64,000 nt of DNA from positions 160,001 to 224,000 of the forward strand of contig OZ242318.1 of assembly GCA_965208105.1 (NCBI GenBank). Direction: 5' to 3'. The notes below the pieces were generated by a model that ran no database searches, was not told the DNA's origin, and was given only the letters and a program-made list of their open reading frames with translations. A program made the position numbers and the translations under genes. How positions within the stretch are numbered: position 1 is the first letter of the stretch; each line of letters begins with the position of its first letter. This document shows positions 5,433 through 58,290 of the stretch, one piece after another. The stretch comes from Candidatus Latescibacterota bacterium. GTDB taxonomy: Bacteria > Latescibacterota > UBA2968 > UBA8231.

Positions 5433-5594
5433 GTGTCCCGCCGCAGAAATATGTCGCCATTATTCCGCCGATCCTTCCCGGCTCACGGCGTTGCCTTCAC
5501 TCGCCGTACACCACTGGTACGACTCGCTCAGGCGCCTTGTGAGCCGGGCGCCTCGGCGGCCCAATTTCGTCAACCTATCTCTGCGGCGGGACAC
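5433..5594 (+). mobile_element. MITE-like repeat, family A copy 1 (162 bp)
   Basis: Perfect 15-bp TIR GTGTCCCGCCGCAGA/TCTGCGGCGGGACAC flanked by TA on both sides (CTAG context). Near-identical copies at 21725, 45837 and 49196. Confidence 0.88.
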
Positions 5595-20474: not shown

Positions 20475-21725
20475 ATGAACCGACTGTGGTCCTATGGATC
20501 CGGCAACCCGGGAAGCCGGGATGGCAGGTTGTTCGGTCCCCACATGGCCGAGGAGAATCCCTTCGACCCCGACGAAATCGTCGTCGCCGAGCAGTGGGCT
20601 TCTGACGTTGTGCTGATCAACCGCGAGACCGGAAAATTACGGGTGGTTTTCGGGGAGCGCGGCGTTCCCGGAGGGGGAAAGCGACTGAACCTGGCGCACT
20701 CGGCACACTTCATGCCTTCCGGACCCTACGCCGGGCACATTTTGCTTACCGAGTTCCGCGGTGAACACCGGGTAATGATAGTCGAGCGCGACAAGGGTGC
20801 CGTTCTCTGGTGCTACACCGGGTGCCGTCGTCCTCTCGAGGCGATCCACTGGGACGATGATCACATCATGGTTTCCGACGGTGATGAAATCGTGAAGATC
20901 CGCCTCCGGGACCAGCAGGTGGTCTGGAATTTCCCCGCATGGCGCGCTTTCTACCTGCAGAAACTCCCGCCGCAGCCGTACGGTGCATCCTATGGGGGCG
21001 ATCTTCTGGTCCCCTTTTTCTCGTCGGACCCCAGCGGAGTCTGGGAGATCGACACCAGCACGGGAGAAAAGGTGTGGTCGTACGGGGAGAGGAAGGGACC
21101 GGGACACGGAGACCTCTACGACATGGTTTCCCGGGCGGCCTGTGCCCTGCGCTTCGGTATCCACGAGAAGTTCGGTGGCTACACCATCATCTGCAGCGAA
21201 CGCTCGCGAATTCTCTGTGTGAACCGGGACAAGGAGCTGGTTTGGGAGTTGGGGGGAGGCAGTGGGGACCATCTCGCCCCTGGGACGCCCTACGCCCTGC
21301 TGCCAACCTACATTGCGCCGACCACGAGAGGCACGCTCCTGGTCACCGACTGGGGCTTGAACATGATCTACGAGCTCGATCCGTTCCATATTCCACCGCG
21401 CTCGGTGAAGGACGCCTACCTCTGCAGGGAGGAGGAAATCGGGGATGATTTCACCGACAGCGGTACCATCGAGTCGCGGGGTTACGGCCATGTGACCGTC
21501 CAGGTCTTCAATCGACACCGAAACACGGGGTTGAACTGGCAGGTACTGGGCTCCCACAATGCAAGAGACTGGCAAGTCGTCCACTCTCCTCCAGAGAGGC
21601 TTGGCGGCGGGGAGTCGACCTGGACCACCATTTCCGAGCCGTGGAACTTCATCAAGACCCGGGCCGGGTCCGCAGTTCGGGGTGAGTCCGCGGTAGTAGA
21701 AGTATACGCCACCATGCGCCGCTAG
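20475..21725 (+). CDS. Hypothetical beta-propeller (PQQ/arylsulfotransferase-like repeats) protein
   Basis: Repeated units such as GAVLWCY, QQVVWNF, GEKVWSY and KELVWEL; AAGGAGG RBS upstream. Confidence 0.6.
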   Translation: MNRLWSYGSGNPGSRDGRLFGPHMAEENPFDPDEIVVAEQWASDVVLINRETGKLRVVFGERGVPGGGKRLNLAHSAHFMPSGPYAGHILLTEFRGEHRVMIVERDKGAVLWCYTGCRRPLEAIHWDDDHIMVSDGDEIVKIRLRDQQVVWNFPAWRAFYLQKLPPQPYGASYGGDLLVPFFSSDPSGVWEIDTSTGEKVWSYGERKGPGHGDLYDMVSRAACALRFGIHEKFGGYTIICSERSRILCVNRDKELVWELGGGSGDHLAPGTPYALLPTYIAPTTRGTLLVTDWGLNMIYELDPFHIPPRSVKDAYLCREEEIGDDFTDSGTIESRGYGHVTVQVFNRHRNTGLNWQVLGSHNARDWQVVHSPPERLGGGESTWTTISEPWNFIKTRAGSAVRGESAVVEVYATMRR

Positions 21726-21886
21726 TGTCCCGTCGCAGAGATAGGTTGACGAAATTGGGCCGCCGAGGCGCCAGGCTCACAAGGCGCCTGAGCGAGTCGT
21801 ACCAGTGGTGTACGGCGAGTGAAGGCAACGCCGTGAGCCGGGATGGATCGGCGGAAAAATGGCAACATATTTCTGCGACGGGACAC
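21725..21886 (-). mobile_element. MITE-like repeat, family A copy 2 (inverted), target of the IS110-family insertion
   Basis: Reverse complement of copy 1 with TIR GTGTCCCGTCGCAGA/TCTGCGACGGGACAC. Its left TAG is the stop codon of the upstream gene. Confidence 0.88.
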
Positions 21887-21959
21887 TGATATGTATTGAC
21901 GGTTGTCAACCCCCTCCGGGGTGGTCGTTTCGGGTGTTATCTTTGCATGAGTTTGTTCG

Positions 21960-22126
21960 GGAACAGAAGGGACGCTGTAGCGACGGTTGATCCGACTGAT
22001 ATTCGCGGGTTGGTTACCGCCTGTCCTGGGTGCGTCGCGGAGCGGCCTCAATCTAGAGTCGAGGGTCAGCCTGATAGGCGCCTCATAGTGTCTTCGAGGA
22101 TTCTCCTGACCGGTCCCTTCTGTCCC
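21960..22126 (-). ncRNA. Putative bridge/seek RNA of the IS1111-type element
   Basis: A 14-bp enclosing stem (22113-22126 with 21960-21973) holds two stem/internal-loop/stem modules. Loop sequences match the target (GACACTA, TCTAG) and the donor junction (ATATCAG). Transcript ends unknown. Confidence 0.75.
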
Positions 22127-22180
22127 GTTTCGATTTACATGAGCAAAGGTCCTATGCCGGCTTCTGAGACGATGAGCTTA

Positions 22181-23320
22181 TCAGGCGGCGATCCGAGGCC
22201 TCCTGGCCACGAGGCGGCCGGGGCGTTTCTGCTCCCAGGCGATGGCCCAGATGAAACCCAAAAGCTCCCGCGCGATCGCGGTGCAGACTTTGTTTTTCGG
22301 CATCCCTCGCCCACTCAGCCGTCGATAGCGTCCACACAGGCGTTTCTGTGCCTTCCAGGCGATGGCCTGTATGGGGGGTGCGGTCTGTTCGGCGCGTCGT
22401 TGCAAGGCGGCCGTCTTGCGGGCGGGAAAGCGATAGCACCAGGCGGCTTCCACCAGCACGCGCCGCACGTGGGCGTTGCCCGCCTTGGTGATCGCCCCTC
22501 GCTTTTGGCGGGAGCCGCTGGAATGCTCGCTGGGGACCAGACCGACGAAGGCCATCAGTTGGCGCGGCGAGTCAAAGCGGGTGAGGTCCCCCAACTCGGC
22601 CAGGGTCGTAACCGCGGTGAGCGTGTCTACCCCGCGCAGCGCCCTCATAGCCCGCGTCTCCCCTTCCAAAGACCATCCCTCCAGCGCCTGCTGCAGGGCC
22701 TGGTCCAACCCCTGGATCCGACCTTGGGCTTCCTGTACCGCGTCCACGTATTCCTGAAAGACGATCTGCTGGGCCGGATGATCGAAGCGCTGGGTCTGCA
22801 GCCAGCGAAAGTGGGCTTGGGTCCAGCGACTGCGCCCGGAGTAGATCCGGCCGTGGCGCTGCAAGAAGCTGTTCAGCCGCTGGCGCACGCGGCGCTCGGC
22901 GTGCTTGAAGTCTTCCCGGCAGCGCTCCAGATCGCGCATCGCCTCCTGCGCTTCGTCGGGCACCCACACGGGGGTCAACTCGCCGTGTTGGAAAAGCCGC
23001 ACCAGAGACACAGCATCGCGGCGGTCGGTCTTGATGCGGTCGCCCGGCCGACGCGGGATCAGCGAGGGCGCCACCACCGTGCAGGCGTGCCCCAGGGCTG
23101 TGAGCTGACGGTAGACGCCGTAGCCGCAGGGTCCGGCCTCGTAGCAAAACCGCAACGAGGTCCCACCACGGGCCAGTTGGCCCGCCAGCTTGGACAACGC
23201 GGCGCCCGTAGACGGTATCGTTCCATACAGGTCTGGCCCTTTTCGGCCTTCACCGGCCAGGGCGACGGTGATCGAATCTTTATGTATGTCCAAGGCGACG
23301 AATTTCGTAGATTTACGCAT
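22181..23320 (-). CDS. IS110-family transposase/recombinase
   Basis: RuvC-like DEDD residues in ALDIHK, CYEAG and KTDRRDA; C-terminal GLVPSEHSSG and GAITKAGN; GGAGG RBS before ATG 23320. Confidence 0.95.
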   Translation of the reverse strand: MRKSTKFVALDIHKDSITVALAGEGRKGPDLYGTIPSTGAALSKLAGQLARGGTSLRFCYEAGPCGYGVYRQLTALGHACTVVAPSLIPRRPGDRIKTDRRDAVSLVRLFQHGELTPVWVPDEAQEAMRDLERCREDFKHAERRVRQRLNSFLQRHGRIYSGRSRWTQAHFRWLQTQRFDHPAQQIVFQEYVDAVQEAQGRIQGLDQALQQALEGWSLEGETRAMRALRGVDTLTAVTTLAELGDLTRFDSPRQLMAFVGLVPSEHSSGSRQKRGAITKAGNAHVRRVLVEAAWCYRFPARKTAALQRRAEQTAPPIQAIAWKAQKRLCGRYRRLSGRGMPKNKVCTAIARELLGFIWAIAWEQKRPGRLVARRPRIAA

Positions 23321-23580
23321 GGCCTCCTCCTTCTCGCTGGGGATAGGTCTTTGGGTGAACTCCGTTTTCCCAAAGATAACCCCCGACAACCGAGTCGGAG
23401 GAGGTCTTTCATATCTCCGTCAATACATAAGGTCTAGACGTGGCTCAGCCCGGTGAGAAGGGGCAGGGCCTGACAGGCCTCCGTACCCGCTCGGCGAGGC
23501 GGGGCTTCTCCCGTGACCACAACCTTAGTACAATACCCTGGTCGATTCGGCTCCCGGTACCCCGAACTTAATCCAAGGAG

Positions 23581-25233
23581 ATGCAACGCATGGACGCAGA
23601 ACGAGAGCGAGCGCGCTGGCGCCGCCGGCGGATCATCTACAACAACGACGGCGACGACGTGATCGAAGCCCGCCCCGAGGGCGATGAGCACGACCACGAC
23701 GTCAACGAATCTCTCATGGTGCGCTCCAGCGACGATCTGGTTCAGGATTATCTGGCCGCCCGCAGCACTCCATTGATCGGCTCGCAGGTGGACAGCAACT
23801 GGTTCGCCACCGCCATGGCCGGGCTCACCTTCTCCCACCAGACCAGGCTGGGAGGATTCTACGGCAAGGGGGTTCCCCTGGAGCTGGTGGAGAGGTACGG
23901 GCGCGACCCCCTGCAGATCCAGCTGGACTTCAGCCGCGAAAACGGCATGGAGGCGGCCTGGGCCCTGCGCATGAACGATGTCCACGACGCCTTCCCCATG
24001 GGTTCGCGCAGATATACCTACGGTCTGGCCAGGTTCAAGCGGGAAAACCCGGGTTACATGATCGGCGAGGATGGCGACTGGGAGAAATTCGCGGACGACC
24101 CGGTCAAACGGGCATGGACGCGATTGGACTTCGCCATTCCGGAGGTCCGCGACCACATCTTCGCCGTAATCGAGGAGGTGGCGGAGAACTACGACGTGGA
24201 CCTCATCGGAATGGAGTTCTTCAAGTACTGGCCCTTCTTCCGCGAGTCCATGGAGTTGGATCCCGTAACGCCCGAGCACTTGGAGATCATGAACGACCTT
24301 CTGCGCCGCATTCGCCGCATGGCGGACGGGGTCGCCGCCCGCCGCGGCCGCCCGCTGCTTTTGGCAGCCCACACACCCTTCAGCCTGGAGGATTGCGTCC
24401 ACGTCGGGGTGGACCTGGAAACCTGGCTCAAGGAAGATCTGATCGACCAGTTCTGCCCCGGAGGCAATTACGAGTCGGTCCTGCGCGATTCCTACCACGG
24501 CATCGTCGACCTGGGACACAGGTACGAGGTCCCCGTATATCCCTGCCTCTCCTGGGGGTTCTGGGACCGCTGGGTATTTCACCGGAGCGACGGCAAGTAC
24601 AGGCGGTTCGACGATTGGGTAAAGAACCTGTACGGGGGACAGCCGGAGCGCATCGGCTGTCCGGAGTACGTCGCGCTGTTCAACGGGTGGGAGGGCTCGT
24701 TCCCCGCCTGGCGCGGCGCCGCCATGAACCTGCTCAACGCCGGAGCCGATGGACTCTACCTCTTCAATCCCGCCCTCGGTGATCCGCGGGTGTGGCGGGA
24801 GATCGGCGAGGTGTCCTCCATGGCGGGGAAGGACCGCCTCTACGGCATCGATCGTTTCCCCGCCGGCGACAGCTTCAATGACGTCGCCGAAGTGTACCTG
24901 AAGCCCGGCATGCCGGTAGCCGCCAGCTTTCAGGTCGGAGAGGACGTGGGGACCAGCGGTGCAAACAGGCTGGATTTCAGCCTCCACCTGTGGAACCACG
25001 CGGCGGGCGACCGGGTGGCGGTAAAACTGAACGGGACTTCGGTCCCCGGCTTGAAGCCGGCCGAGCCCGGGAGGAACCCGGAGCGGGGCCAGTGGCTCGA
25101 AGGCGAGGTCGAAGCCCGCCAGGTGAACCGGGGCGAGAACCAGTTGGAGGTTGCCGTCGAGGAACGGGGCGGATCAGCCTCCGACACCCTGGTCATGGAC
25201 TCGGCCCAGCTCCGGGTCCGCTGCGAGCGCTGA
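23581..25233 (+). CDS. Hypothetical glycoside-hydrolase-like TIM-barrel protein (GHL10/DUF187-like) with C-terminal beta-sandwich
   Basis: IIYNNDGDD, LRMNDVH, LDFAIPEVRD, NYDVD and GADGLYLFN motifs; AAGGAG RBS. Confidence 0.55.
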   Translation: MQRMDAERERARWRRRRIIYNNDGDDVIEARPEGDEHDHDVNESLMVRSSDDLVQDYLAARSTPLIGSQVDSNWFATAMAGLTFSHQTRLGGFYGKGVPLELVERYGRDPLQIQLDFSRENGMEAAWALRMNDVHDAFPMGSRRYTYGLARFKRENPGYMIGEDGDWEKFADDPVKRAWTRLDFAIPEVRDHIFAVIEEVAENYDVDLIGMEFFKYWPFFRESMELDPVTPEHLEIMNDLLRRIRRMADGVAARRGRPLLLAAHTPFSLEDCVHVGVDLETWLKEDLIDQFCPGGNYESVLRDSYHGIVDLGHRYEVPVYPCLSWGFWDRWVFHRSDGKYRRFDDWVKNLYGGQPERIGCPEYVALFNGWEGSFPAWRGAAMNLLNAGADGLYLFNPALGDPRVWREIGEVSSMAGKDRLYGIDRFPAGDSFNDVAEVYLKPGMPVAASFQVGEDVGTSGANRLDFSLHLWNHAAGDRVAVKLNGTSVPGLKPAEPGRNPERGQWLEGEVEARQVNRGENQLEVAVEERGGSASDTLVMDSAQLRVRCER

Positions 25234-45573: not shown

Positions 45574-45837
45574 ATGGAAAATCCGCAGAACGGCCAAAAG
45601 GACTACGAGAAAATCGCGGCGAATTGCCAGCGGGTACTGCGCCTGACCACGGGGTTGTTCCTGACAGCCTTCGTTCTGATCATTGCCATGACCTCATTTT
45701 CAACCGGGCTCTACGTGAGGCTCGCCGCCAAGGCGCTCTACTTCGTCATTCTGATTTCGGCACTGACTTCCATTGCAGTGTGGATCTATCGCAACAGGAC
45801 GGAGAAGCGCTGGCGCATTTCCTCCCGCATCATCTAG
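45574..45837 (+). CDS. Small two-TM hypothetical protein
   Basis: 87 aa with two hydrophobic helices; stop codon coincides with the MITE end. Confidence 0.6.
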   Translation: MENPQNGQKDYEKIAANCQRVLRLTTGLFLTAFVLIIAMTSFSTGLYVRLAAKALYFVILISALTSIAVWIYRNRTEKRWRISSRII

Positions 45838-45997
45838 GTCCCGTCGCAGAAATATGTCGCCATTTTTCCACCGATCCATCCCGGCTCACGGCGTTGCCTT
45901 CGCTCGCCGTACACCACCGGTACGACTCGCTCAGGCGCCTTGTGAGCCTGGCGCCTCGGCGGCCCAATTGCGTCAACCTATCTCTGCGGCGGGACAC
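45837..45997 (+). mobile_element. MITE-like repeat, family A copy 3
   Basis: Same sequence as copy 1 with a 1-bp deletion in the left TIR (GGTCCC); TA flanks. Confidence 0.88.
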
Positions 45998-57882: not shown

Positions 57883-58228
57883 CCTCGGCGCCGCTTCGGT
57901 TTTCGAGGAGGGCAGGCCCTACCGCGTCGAGCTCGACGGCAAGGCCCTGGTGCTGGTGCGCCGGGGGGACCGGTTTTTCGCCCTGCGCGACACCTGCCCG
58001 CACCAGGGAGCCCGGTTGTCGGACGGCCGCGTGGGGGGGACCGCGCTCGAGTGCATGCCCGGAGACGGCATTCCCTACGGCCGCGACGGGGAGATCCTGA
58101 CCTGTCCCTGGCACGGCTGGGAGTTCGAGCTTGGCAGCGGCAAGTGCCTTGTCAATCCGCAGCGGGTGCGGGTGCGGTCCTATCGCGCCTGGGTCGAGGC
58201 GGACCGGGTGCTGGTCGACCTGGGTTAG
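57863..58228 (+). CDS. Rieske [2Fe-2S] ferredoxin
   Basis: CPHQG and CPWHG motifs. Confidence 0.9.
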   Translation: MPSSVRDLGAASVFEEGRPYRVELDGKALVLVRRGDRFFALRDTCPHQGARLSDGRVGGTALECMPGDGIPYGRDGEILTCPWHGWEFELGSGKCLVNPQRVRVRSYRAWVEADRVLVDLG

Positions 58229-58290
58229 TGTCCCGCCGCAAAAGACAGGTAGACAGAGCTGGGCGGACGGGGCACCCCACTCACCAGGCG
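58228..58290 (-). repeat. Degenerate remnant of MITE family A
   Basis: GTGTCCCGCCGCA...GACAGGTAGAC...TGGGC...CTCACCAGGCG aligns with the first ~62 bp of copy 2. Confidence 0.6.

Follow-up and report, generated by a model that had tools for sequence, protein, structure and literature searches.

Within the genome of a Candidatus Latescibacterota bacterium (assembly GCA_965208105.1, contig OZ242318.1), a 1548-bp insertion sequence (IS) of the IS1111 group sits exactly at the outer tip of a MITE (miniature inverted-repeat transposable element), and we consider it highly probable that this is an active or recently active element guided to MITE tips by RNA. The stretch analysed, referred to here as the window, comprises 64,000 nucleotides (bases 160001-224000 of a single-contig genome of 4,846,116 bp), and coordinates are those of the window unless given as genome positions. 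The anatomy of the element, the census of its copies, an empty site, a conserved RNA fold and the covariation of both strands of one RNA loop with the flanking DNA were all observed. A preliminary description of the same sequence had interpreted the element as an IS1111-type IS inserted precisely into a MITE repeat, with the MITE family serving as a multi-copy harbour. Our analysis supports this interpretation in every part and refines the specificity to a 9-nt match, GACACTAG followed by A or G.

The insertion point and the genomic copies

The left junction of the element reads ...GGGACA-CT(21886-21887)-GATATGTATTG... and the right one ...CAATACATAAGGT-CT(23434-23435)-AGACG, both as written in the preliminary description; the right-hand CT was assigned to the element by arbitrary choice. 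Excision in silico of the 1548 bp with one CT yields GGGACACTAG, a sequence also present at the tips of intact copies of the same MITE within the window (at the right end of those in 5433-5594 and 45836-45997). Contigs of four public sequencing runs (X1, X4, X8 and X16) were aligned to the locus, with the limitation that contigs lose rare forms. One contig of run X4 joins position 21885 to 23434, so that exactly 1548 bases are skipped and two letters fit both sides. It is a single contig of low depth (3.6), with 52 letters on its shorter side, and it represents an empty site at the same locus, with the MITE present and the IS absent. The restoration of an intact tip by removal of the element and one CT, which the preliminary description had proposed along with a search of reads for the empty site, is seen both in the window copies and in this contig. 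Likewise, the claim that recombination takes place at a CT core without target duplication agrees with the 1548-bp skip and its two-letter overlap and with the boundaries of all 12 genome copies, which are CT...CT+AG in every case and lack any target duplication. The crossover lies in the middle of CTAG, and the element is located at the boundary between the MITE and its flank and not inside the repeat, a point on which the previous claim is refined. We infer that a circular intermediate is used.

When the whole genome was compared with the element by BLAST, 11 full-length copies of 95.5-100% identity were obtained, together with another that has lost 91 bp internally and three fragments. The 379-aa frame is intact in 10 of the 12 copies, one of the others being frameshifted and one carrying the deletion. 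Ten of the 12 adjoin a tip of the MITE family seen at the window locus, the arrangement being invariably ...GGGACA-CT-element-AG, in one orientation relative to the repeat; six left and four right MITE ends are used, on both genome strands. Since there are 198 MITE tips genome-wide (at most two mismatches to the 15-nt repeat), of which 188 are unoccupied, and these tips amount to about 2 in 100,000 oriented genome positions, placement at MITE tips is far beyond chance. The role of the MITE family as a multi-copy landing site, put forward previously for this window, is thus borne out over the whole genome.

Copies could also have spread among MITEs by homologous recombination or gene conversion, without targeted transposition; MITE copies are similar enough to recombine, and one copy of the element (genome 3964970, described below) lies in a rearranged context. 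We regard this explanation as extremely unlikely, given that the element is found at the very tip, where homology is one-sided and the far flank is unique at each locus, whereas conversion needs homology on both sides. The use of both MITE ends and both genome strands also argues against it, as does the covariation between guide and flank in relatives presented in the next section.

With regard to its anatomy, the element contains a single gene, on the minus strand, encoding a transposase in which Pfam identifies an N-terminal DEDD (RuvC-like) domain (PF01548, E 6.4e-13, residues 31-178 of the 402-aa frame) and a C-terminal domain (PF02371, E 1.9e-22). The translation contains GLVPSEHSSG, in agreement with the pattern GL-P----S(t)G given for IS1111 transposases in passages of PMC11187229. 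The subterminal inverted repeats, of 13 nt, are within the 7-17 bp that define the IS1111 group, the tips being fixed by the empty-site contig. Non-coding DNA extends over 293 nt downstream of the gene (21888-22180) versus 115 nt upstream of it (23321-23435); values of 295 and 114 are obtained over the slightly wider span 21886-23435. On the basis of the Pfam domains, the motif, the subterminal repeats and the downstream non-coding region, the element is a member of the IS1111 group of the IS110 family, and the IS1111-type label that it had been given from sequence inspection holds, both Pfam domains, the 13-nt repeats and the long non-coding region downstream being consistent with it.

The predicted guide RNA and its match to the target

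Relatives of the element were gathered as full copies in two genomes of the host family, G001 (85% identity) and G016 (81%), plus 80 of 235 relative loci from named records covering several phyla, with transposases 56-85% identical. Both ends could be recognised by a shared end pattern in 42 of the resulting 83 elements, all of which present the same architecture and the same AG/CT core. The alignment of their non-coding regions shows two short variable blocks on a conserved scaffold, and these correspond to the two strands of one internal loop in the consensus fold. The latter was obtained with 28 of 32 distinct RNA segments (the G001 copy, two near-duplicates and one segment with a longer loop were left out) and consists of 39 pairs, 21 of them with compensatory changes.

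The sequences of both loop strands follow the flanks of each element according to a simple rule. In the sense of the transposase, the 5' strand consists of the complement of bases one to five of the right flank, then CU and A, and the 3' strand repeats roughly the final three bases of the left flank, then AG and A. Seven of 35 aligned rows were omitted (flanks cut by contig ends, misaligned loops, or a deletion); the G001 copy, with a 7-nt deletion in its 3' loop strand, is not in the counts. The test was made on 27 non-redundant elements. For the 22 distinct 5' strands, agreement with the right flank of the respective element was found at 87 of 110 variable positions, compared with a mean of 32.5 and a maximum of 56 in shuffled pairings (0 of 20,000 reach 87). 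For the 23 distinct 3' strands, agreement with the respective left flank was found at 46 of 92 positions (mean 22.4 and maximum 41 after shuffling; 0 of 20,000 reach 46), with the caveat that the relatives share ancestry and the shuffling test overstates independence. The match is visible row by row in the alignment. As an example, the G016 copy (81% identical) combines the 3' strand ACACUAGA with the flank ...CCACT+AG, which constitutes a compensatory change. The 12 copies in the genome studied here share one 5' guide strand and provide no test among themselves; the 3' strand varies in three diverged copies, CCCUAG in the copy at genome 2091330 fitting its flank and CCAUAG in two other copies not fitting theirs.

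Recognition of hairpins or of DNA shape was once proposed for repetitive extragenic palindromic (REP) and attC targets, and a protein, or the shape adopted by the DNA, for instance a hairpin formed by the MITE repeat, could pick the target here too, with the loop matches being coincidental. The inverted repeats of the MITE could extrude, and the guide match is short (9 nt) and starts with a mismatch. Shape would not predict, on the other hand, that both loop strands change together with the flanks in relatives with unrelated targets. Moreover, the two copies at non-MITE sites keep CACTAG, and both MITE ends are used, the tip sequence alone being common to them. All this makes recognition by shape very unlikely.

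Guidance by RNA, as the preferred explanation, would work as follows. The DEDD recombinase would be steered by a bridge (seek) RNA from the 293-nt region downstream of the gene, and one internal loop of this RNA would carry two short guide strands that overlap on the core. In the element of the window, AGACACUA and ACUCUAGA jointly spell GACACTAGR (GACA-CT-AG plus a purine): the 5' strand AGACACUA would read the final four bases of the MITE repeat, followed by CT and A, and the UCUAG of the 3' strand would read, on the opposite DNA strand, CTAG and a purine. A crossover at the CT, midway through the CTAG that flanks each MITE, would then put the element at the MITE tip in one orientation and without duplication. 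For such an element the MITE family may offer about 50 ready-made and mostly harmless landing sites, GACACTAG being almost confined to MITE tips.

The distribution of the motif in the genome can be compared with this scheme. There are 87 free GACACTAG sites, of which 74 are MITE tips, and 43 free GACACTAGR sites, of which 39 are MITE tips. A purine follows CTAG in all 10 occupied MITE tips versus 39 of the 74 free GACACTAG tips (P = 0.003), and either A or G is predicted at this position because the guide U located there can pair with both. Suitable MITE tips are occupied in 10 of 49 cases, about one in five. With 74 of the 87 free GACACTAG sites being MITE tips, a 9-nt guide is enough to explain the bias of the element towards MITEs, and any extra recognition of the MITE need not be assumed. 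The preliminary description had remarked that, among the MITE ends in the window, the occupied one is alone in reading GACACTAGA. This is literally true in the window, but the A is not the determinant, as the base after CTAG in the 10 occupied tips of the genome is A in four and G in six.

The second stem-loop of the RNA is nearly invariant across relatives, and so are the ends of the elements. The 3' strand of this loop includes AUAUCAG, identical to the right tip plus the core; three relatives with the tip CATACC carry AUACCAG instead, while one relative (L058) breaks the rule. We tentatively consider the second stem-loop as a donor loop that may read the element's own ends. Two other segments that give short matches to the target, namely ACGGGACA, which belongs to the closing stem, and CCGUCGC, from the stem part of the second stem-loop, were discarded as guides, since they are invariant in relatives with other targets. 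The three matches obtained with Rfam in 21600-23600 were also rejected as being at chance level (best E 1.9). Contigs of the X16 metatranscriptome overlap parts of the element, including 22076-22177, which is not evidence of transcription.

Several observations weigh against guidance by RNA of an active IS1111-group element, or limit the support for it, in addition to the shared ancestry of the relatives mentioned above. The transposase, with 379 aa, is longer than the 330-350 aa quoted for IS1111-family transposases in passages of PMC11187229 and falls outside this range; its close relatives align over 360-371 residues, so the whole clade is long. No circle junction, for which the preliminary description had also proposed a read search, is present among the contigs of runs X1, X4, X8 and X16, from which rare forms drop out, and there is no convincing junction promoter: a TTGACA is found near the right tip, with no -10-like hexamer at 16-18 nt. 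Two of the 12 genome copies are away from the tips of the main MITE family, with flanks that keep CACTAG or ACACTAG, so that copies at unrelated sites, considered beforehand as contrary evidence, have not been found. One of these two (genome 2091330) adjoins the tip of a second, related repeat family (...AACACT/AG), and in the other (genome 3964970) the left flank lies within a truncated copy of an IS630-family element (...GACCACT) and the right flank is unrelated unique DNA, a rearranged context and not a simple insertion. As for the RNA, the first base of the 5' guide strand is A where the MITE has G, so that seven of the eight positions pair; the single-sequence fold of the non-coding region is not unusually stable (z -1.57); no Rfam model recognises the RNA in a scan of 21600-23600 with E up to 10; and, on our reading of the alignment, only about five of eight positions agree between the left end of the element and the 5' strand of the presumed donor loop. 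That the bridge/seek RNA is made and is bound by the recombinase is also something that we infer.

Table 1. Position of the element, its predicted RNA and the occupied MITE in the window
Feature	Position	Strand	Basis or remark
IS1111-group insertion sequence, 1548 bp	21888..23435	-	12 genome copies (95.5-100% identical) and precise 1548-bp skip in a contig
DEDD transposase / bridge recombinase gene, 379 aa; span includes stop codon	22181..23320	-	Open reading frame; ATG at 23320, AAGGAGGAGG before ATG
Subterminal inverted repeat, transposase-proximal (left) end	23417..23429		13 nt, 100% complementary to 21890-21902; 6-7 nt from tip
Subterminal inverted repeat, right end (transposase sense)	21890..21902		Partner of 23417-23429; 2-3 nt from tip
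Core of predicted bridge/seek RNA, long closing stem (22113-22126 with 21959-21973) around two stem-loops	21956..22129	-	Fold, covariation
Predicted target-binding loop, 5' strand AGACACUA	22086..22093	-	Sequence of GACA+CT+A at MITE tip (+ strand); would pair with opposite strand
Predicted target-binding loop, 3' strand ACUCUAGA	22052..22059	-	UCUAG would pair with CTAG plus A or G, window + strand
Second stem-loop, candidate donor-binding loop	21980..22038	-	AUAUCAG (21996-22002) equals right tip plus core
Left CT core dinucleotide, crossover point	21886..21887		With AG at 23436-23437 rebuilds CTAG flank
AG, other half of MITE-flanking CTAG, far side of element	23436..23437		AG after 12 of 12 copies
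MITE copy with the element at its tip, 162 bp; terminal inverted repeats GTGTCCCGTCGCAGA / TCTGCGACGGGACAC	21725..21886		Free side flanked by CTAG (21722-21725)

The MITE family and a possible habit of the clade

The MITE family has terminal inverted repeats of 15-25 nt and is represented in the whole genome by 86 repeat-to-repeat pairs of 160-169 bp. Its flanks are CTA...TAG in 34 of 76 unoccupied copies; CTAG being palindromic, a 4-bp duplication of CTAG cannot be distinguished from a TA duplication within a CTAG target. The occupied copy runs inverted with respect to the three other full copies of the window. A search by repeat spacing for an autonomous parent was negative, there being no pair of these repeats at IS-like spacing in the whole genome. 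An IS630-family element of around 1160 bp (PF13358), with 10 genome copies that are 98.5-99.6% identical (e.g. 301595-302757) and in which the window is not involved, has repeats (GTGCGCTGTTAA...) different from those of the MITE, but the CTAG context is common to both: all ten copies are flanked by CTAG, and two are directly against MITE tips. The negative search for an autonomous parent with the same repeats, and an IS630-family element that shares the CTAG context and has other repeats, make the MITE label a fair one, and the family is small, multi-copy and devoid of genes, with terminal inverted repeats and a fixed flanking motif, as corresponds to MITEs.

The common CTAG context raises the possibility of the reverse order of events, in which MITEs landing at CTAG or TA would have inserted beside an existing IS, its right junction holding a CTAG. 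The CTAG flanks of MITEs and of the IS630-family element, and the two copies of the latter directly against MITE tips, would fit such an order. Nevertheless, the occupied tip is followed by TG and not by the TA expected from insertion of a MITE, removal of the IS gives back a normal CTAG flank, the X4 contig has the MITE without the IS at this very locus, and 188 MITE tips are unoccupied. We give this order of events a next to negligible probability, and insertion of the IS into a pre-existing MITE tip is the reading followed here.

Other repeats and remnants in the genome deserve mention. Tips related to those of the MITE (...GCAGGACAC and ...AGCAGGCAC, then TA) occur in at least two more families of short repeats, at genome 2091337-2091451 and 3931507-3931575, and a partial or diverged copy is found near window position 58228 (58228-58242). 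A 162-nt fragment of the element, 91% identical, is located at genome 3931506, at the tip of the third repeat family (...GGCACT); it was discarded as a test of the guide because the target loop is absent from it. Another fragment (genome 4001325-4001432, outside the window), of 109 nt and 85% identical to part of the RNA-coding region, is 5 nt from the second tip of a MITE that carries a full copy at its first tip. It may be what is left of an older copy, or else an orphan RNA gene, in which case it would resemble the solo ssr9 copies of ISPpu9 reported in passages of PMC12288879. At genome 3964223-3966519, also outside the window, the IS1111-type copy is fused to the interior of the truncated IS630-family copy and to unrelated unique DNA, an arrangement suggestive of a deletion or inversion at a poor pseudo-target. 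In runs X1 and X4, the contig depth, when summed, is 20-40 times higher on the MITE than on the IS (window 21662-21904), as expected for a repeat with about 100 copies, and the MITE boundaries are marked by loose contig ends at 21721-21724 and 21887 in many contigs.

Some of the relatives present the same geometry at other repeats. In three gammaproteobacterial genomes, six loci (L024, L031, L032-L034 and L036) have the element at the tip of an unrelated MITE of around 160 bp (GAGGCTGTCGGAC...; 63 bp in L034), the right flank being the MITE repeat and the far MITE end being followed by CTAG. The guide strands at these loci are GCCUC, GACUC or GGCUC, matching the repeat variant of each genome. 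Considering all 37 testable elements, an inverted copy of the right flank exists downstream in eight, one of them (L013) doubtful, versus two in a mirror control. The main MITE family is abundant in the two host-family genomes, with 32 matches in G001 and 30 in G016; the G016 copy of the element adjoins a diverged repeat of the MITE kind, and a remnant of the element in G001 directly abuts a MITE. These data allow us to suggest, with somewhat less than even confidence, that parasitism of MITE tips could be a lifestyle of this whole IS1111 clade instead of being peculiar to a single genome. Both guide strands keep a TAG that is nearly fixed, which would put the crossover in the CTAG that flanks CTAG-seeking transposons and MITEs, and the variable guide bases would track whichever repeat tip abounds in the host. 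A separate case is that of four relative copies in one Longimicrobiales record (L052, L053, L055 and L056), where both flanks are common over at least 14 nt (...AACGGGTA / GGCAAACGGTCGAC), which implies that the target itself is a repeat; no inverted partner of this flank repeat was found within about 1.1 kb.

The element would illustrate, in nature, the way in which a recombinase guided by RNA reaches a landing site that is safe and multi-copy, where a 9-nt guide suffices because the motif is almost private to the tips of another mobile element. The 27 relatives, in turn, represent a natural reprogramming series for the target loop of the IS1111 type, and the rule linking flanks and loop could help to predict the targets of uncharacterised elements of the clade and to annotate nested repeats in metagenome-assembled genomes.

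Comparison with known IS110-family elements

Insertion into the terminal repeat of another transposon is reminiscent of IS4321 and IS5075, which reportedly, in work of Partridge and Hall from 2003, insert in the 38-bp terminal repeats of Tn21-family transposons. These elements are said to have 12-bp subterminal repeats, with tips located about 7 and 3 nt beyond, a fixed orientation and no duplication. If so, they share with the element described here the IS1111 group, the fixed orientation, the absence of duplication and the use of another transposon's terminal repeat as target. Their site reportedly lies inside the repeat of a Tn3-family transposon, whereas the element in the window targets the tip of a MITE, which is non-autonomous, and its tip offsets, as measured here, are 6-7 and 2-3 nt.

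A MITE family used as landing site has been described in Coxiella burnetii RSA 493, in which, according to passages of PMC5896051, 20 of 21 copies of IS1111 are in QMITE2, a proportion comparable to the 10 of 12 observed here. The target of Coxiella IS1111, as presented in those passages, consists of a palindromic sequence (GTAG REP) located within the MITE, at 10-20 bp from one of its ends. In contrast, the target of the element in the window is the outermost tip of the MITE plus its CTAG flank, the MITE family is unrelated to QMITE2 and the host lineage is uncultured. In full-text literature searches, which did return the Coxiella case, we found no IS110-family element described as inserted at a MITE's outer tip. 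The image of a parasite of a parasite used in the preliminary description is supported by our results, but it is not new in kind, given the precedent contained in PMC5896051. The habit of targeting repeats is already known for the IS1111 group, and the element is a new example that leaves the knowledge of the mechanism unchanged.

Further cases, as stated in sections of PMC11187229 and PMC12288879, are ISPa11 and ISPpu9, inserted in REP sequences, and ISKpn4, inserted in attC. In the seekRNAs of IS1111 elements, the complement of the top strand precedes the match to the bottom strand (PMC11187229, in part). Comparison with published seekRNA folds was based on the text descriptions in portions of PMC11187229 and PMC11208160. 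From these, ISEc11, ISPa11 and ISKpn4 resemble the element of this work in having a downstream non-coding region with a short RNA, the same strand order and an overlap on the target, as well as in the natural reprogramming that takes place among relatives (PMC11187229). They differ in their targets (REP, attC and others) and in that their seekRNAs were shown biochemically, while the RNA proposed here derives from covariation.

Finally, IS621 belongs to the IS110 group, and the portions of PMC11208160 considered place its bridge RNA upstream of the gene and assign to it very short subterminal repeats. This is unlike the element in the window, whose predicted RNA would be downstream, inside a long closing stem, with a candidate donor loop that matches the left end in part. 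According to the same source, the CT core is common to both, as would be the guides to opposite strands that overlap on the core and a pair of internal loops, one for the target and one, a candidate in our element, for the donor.

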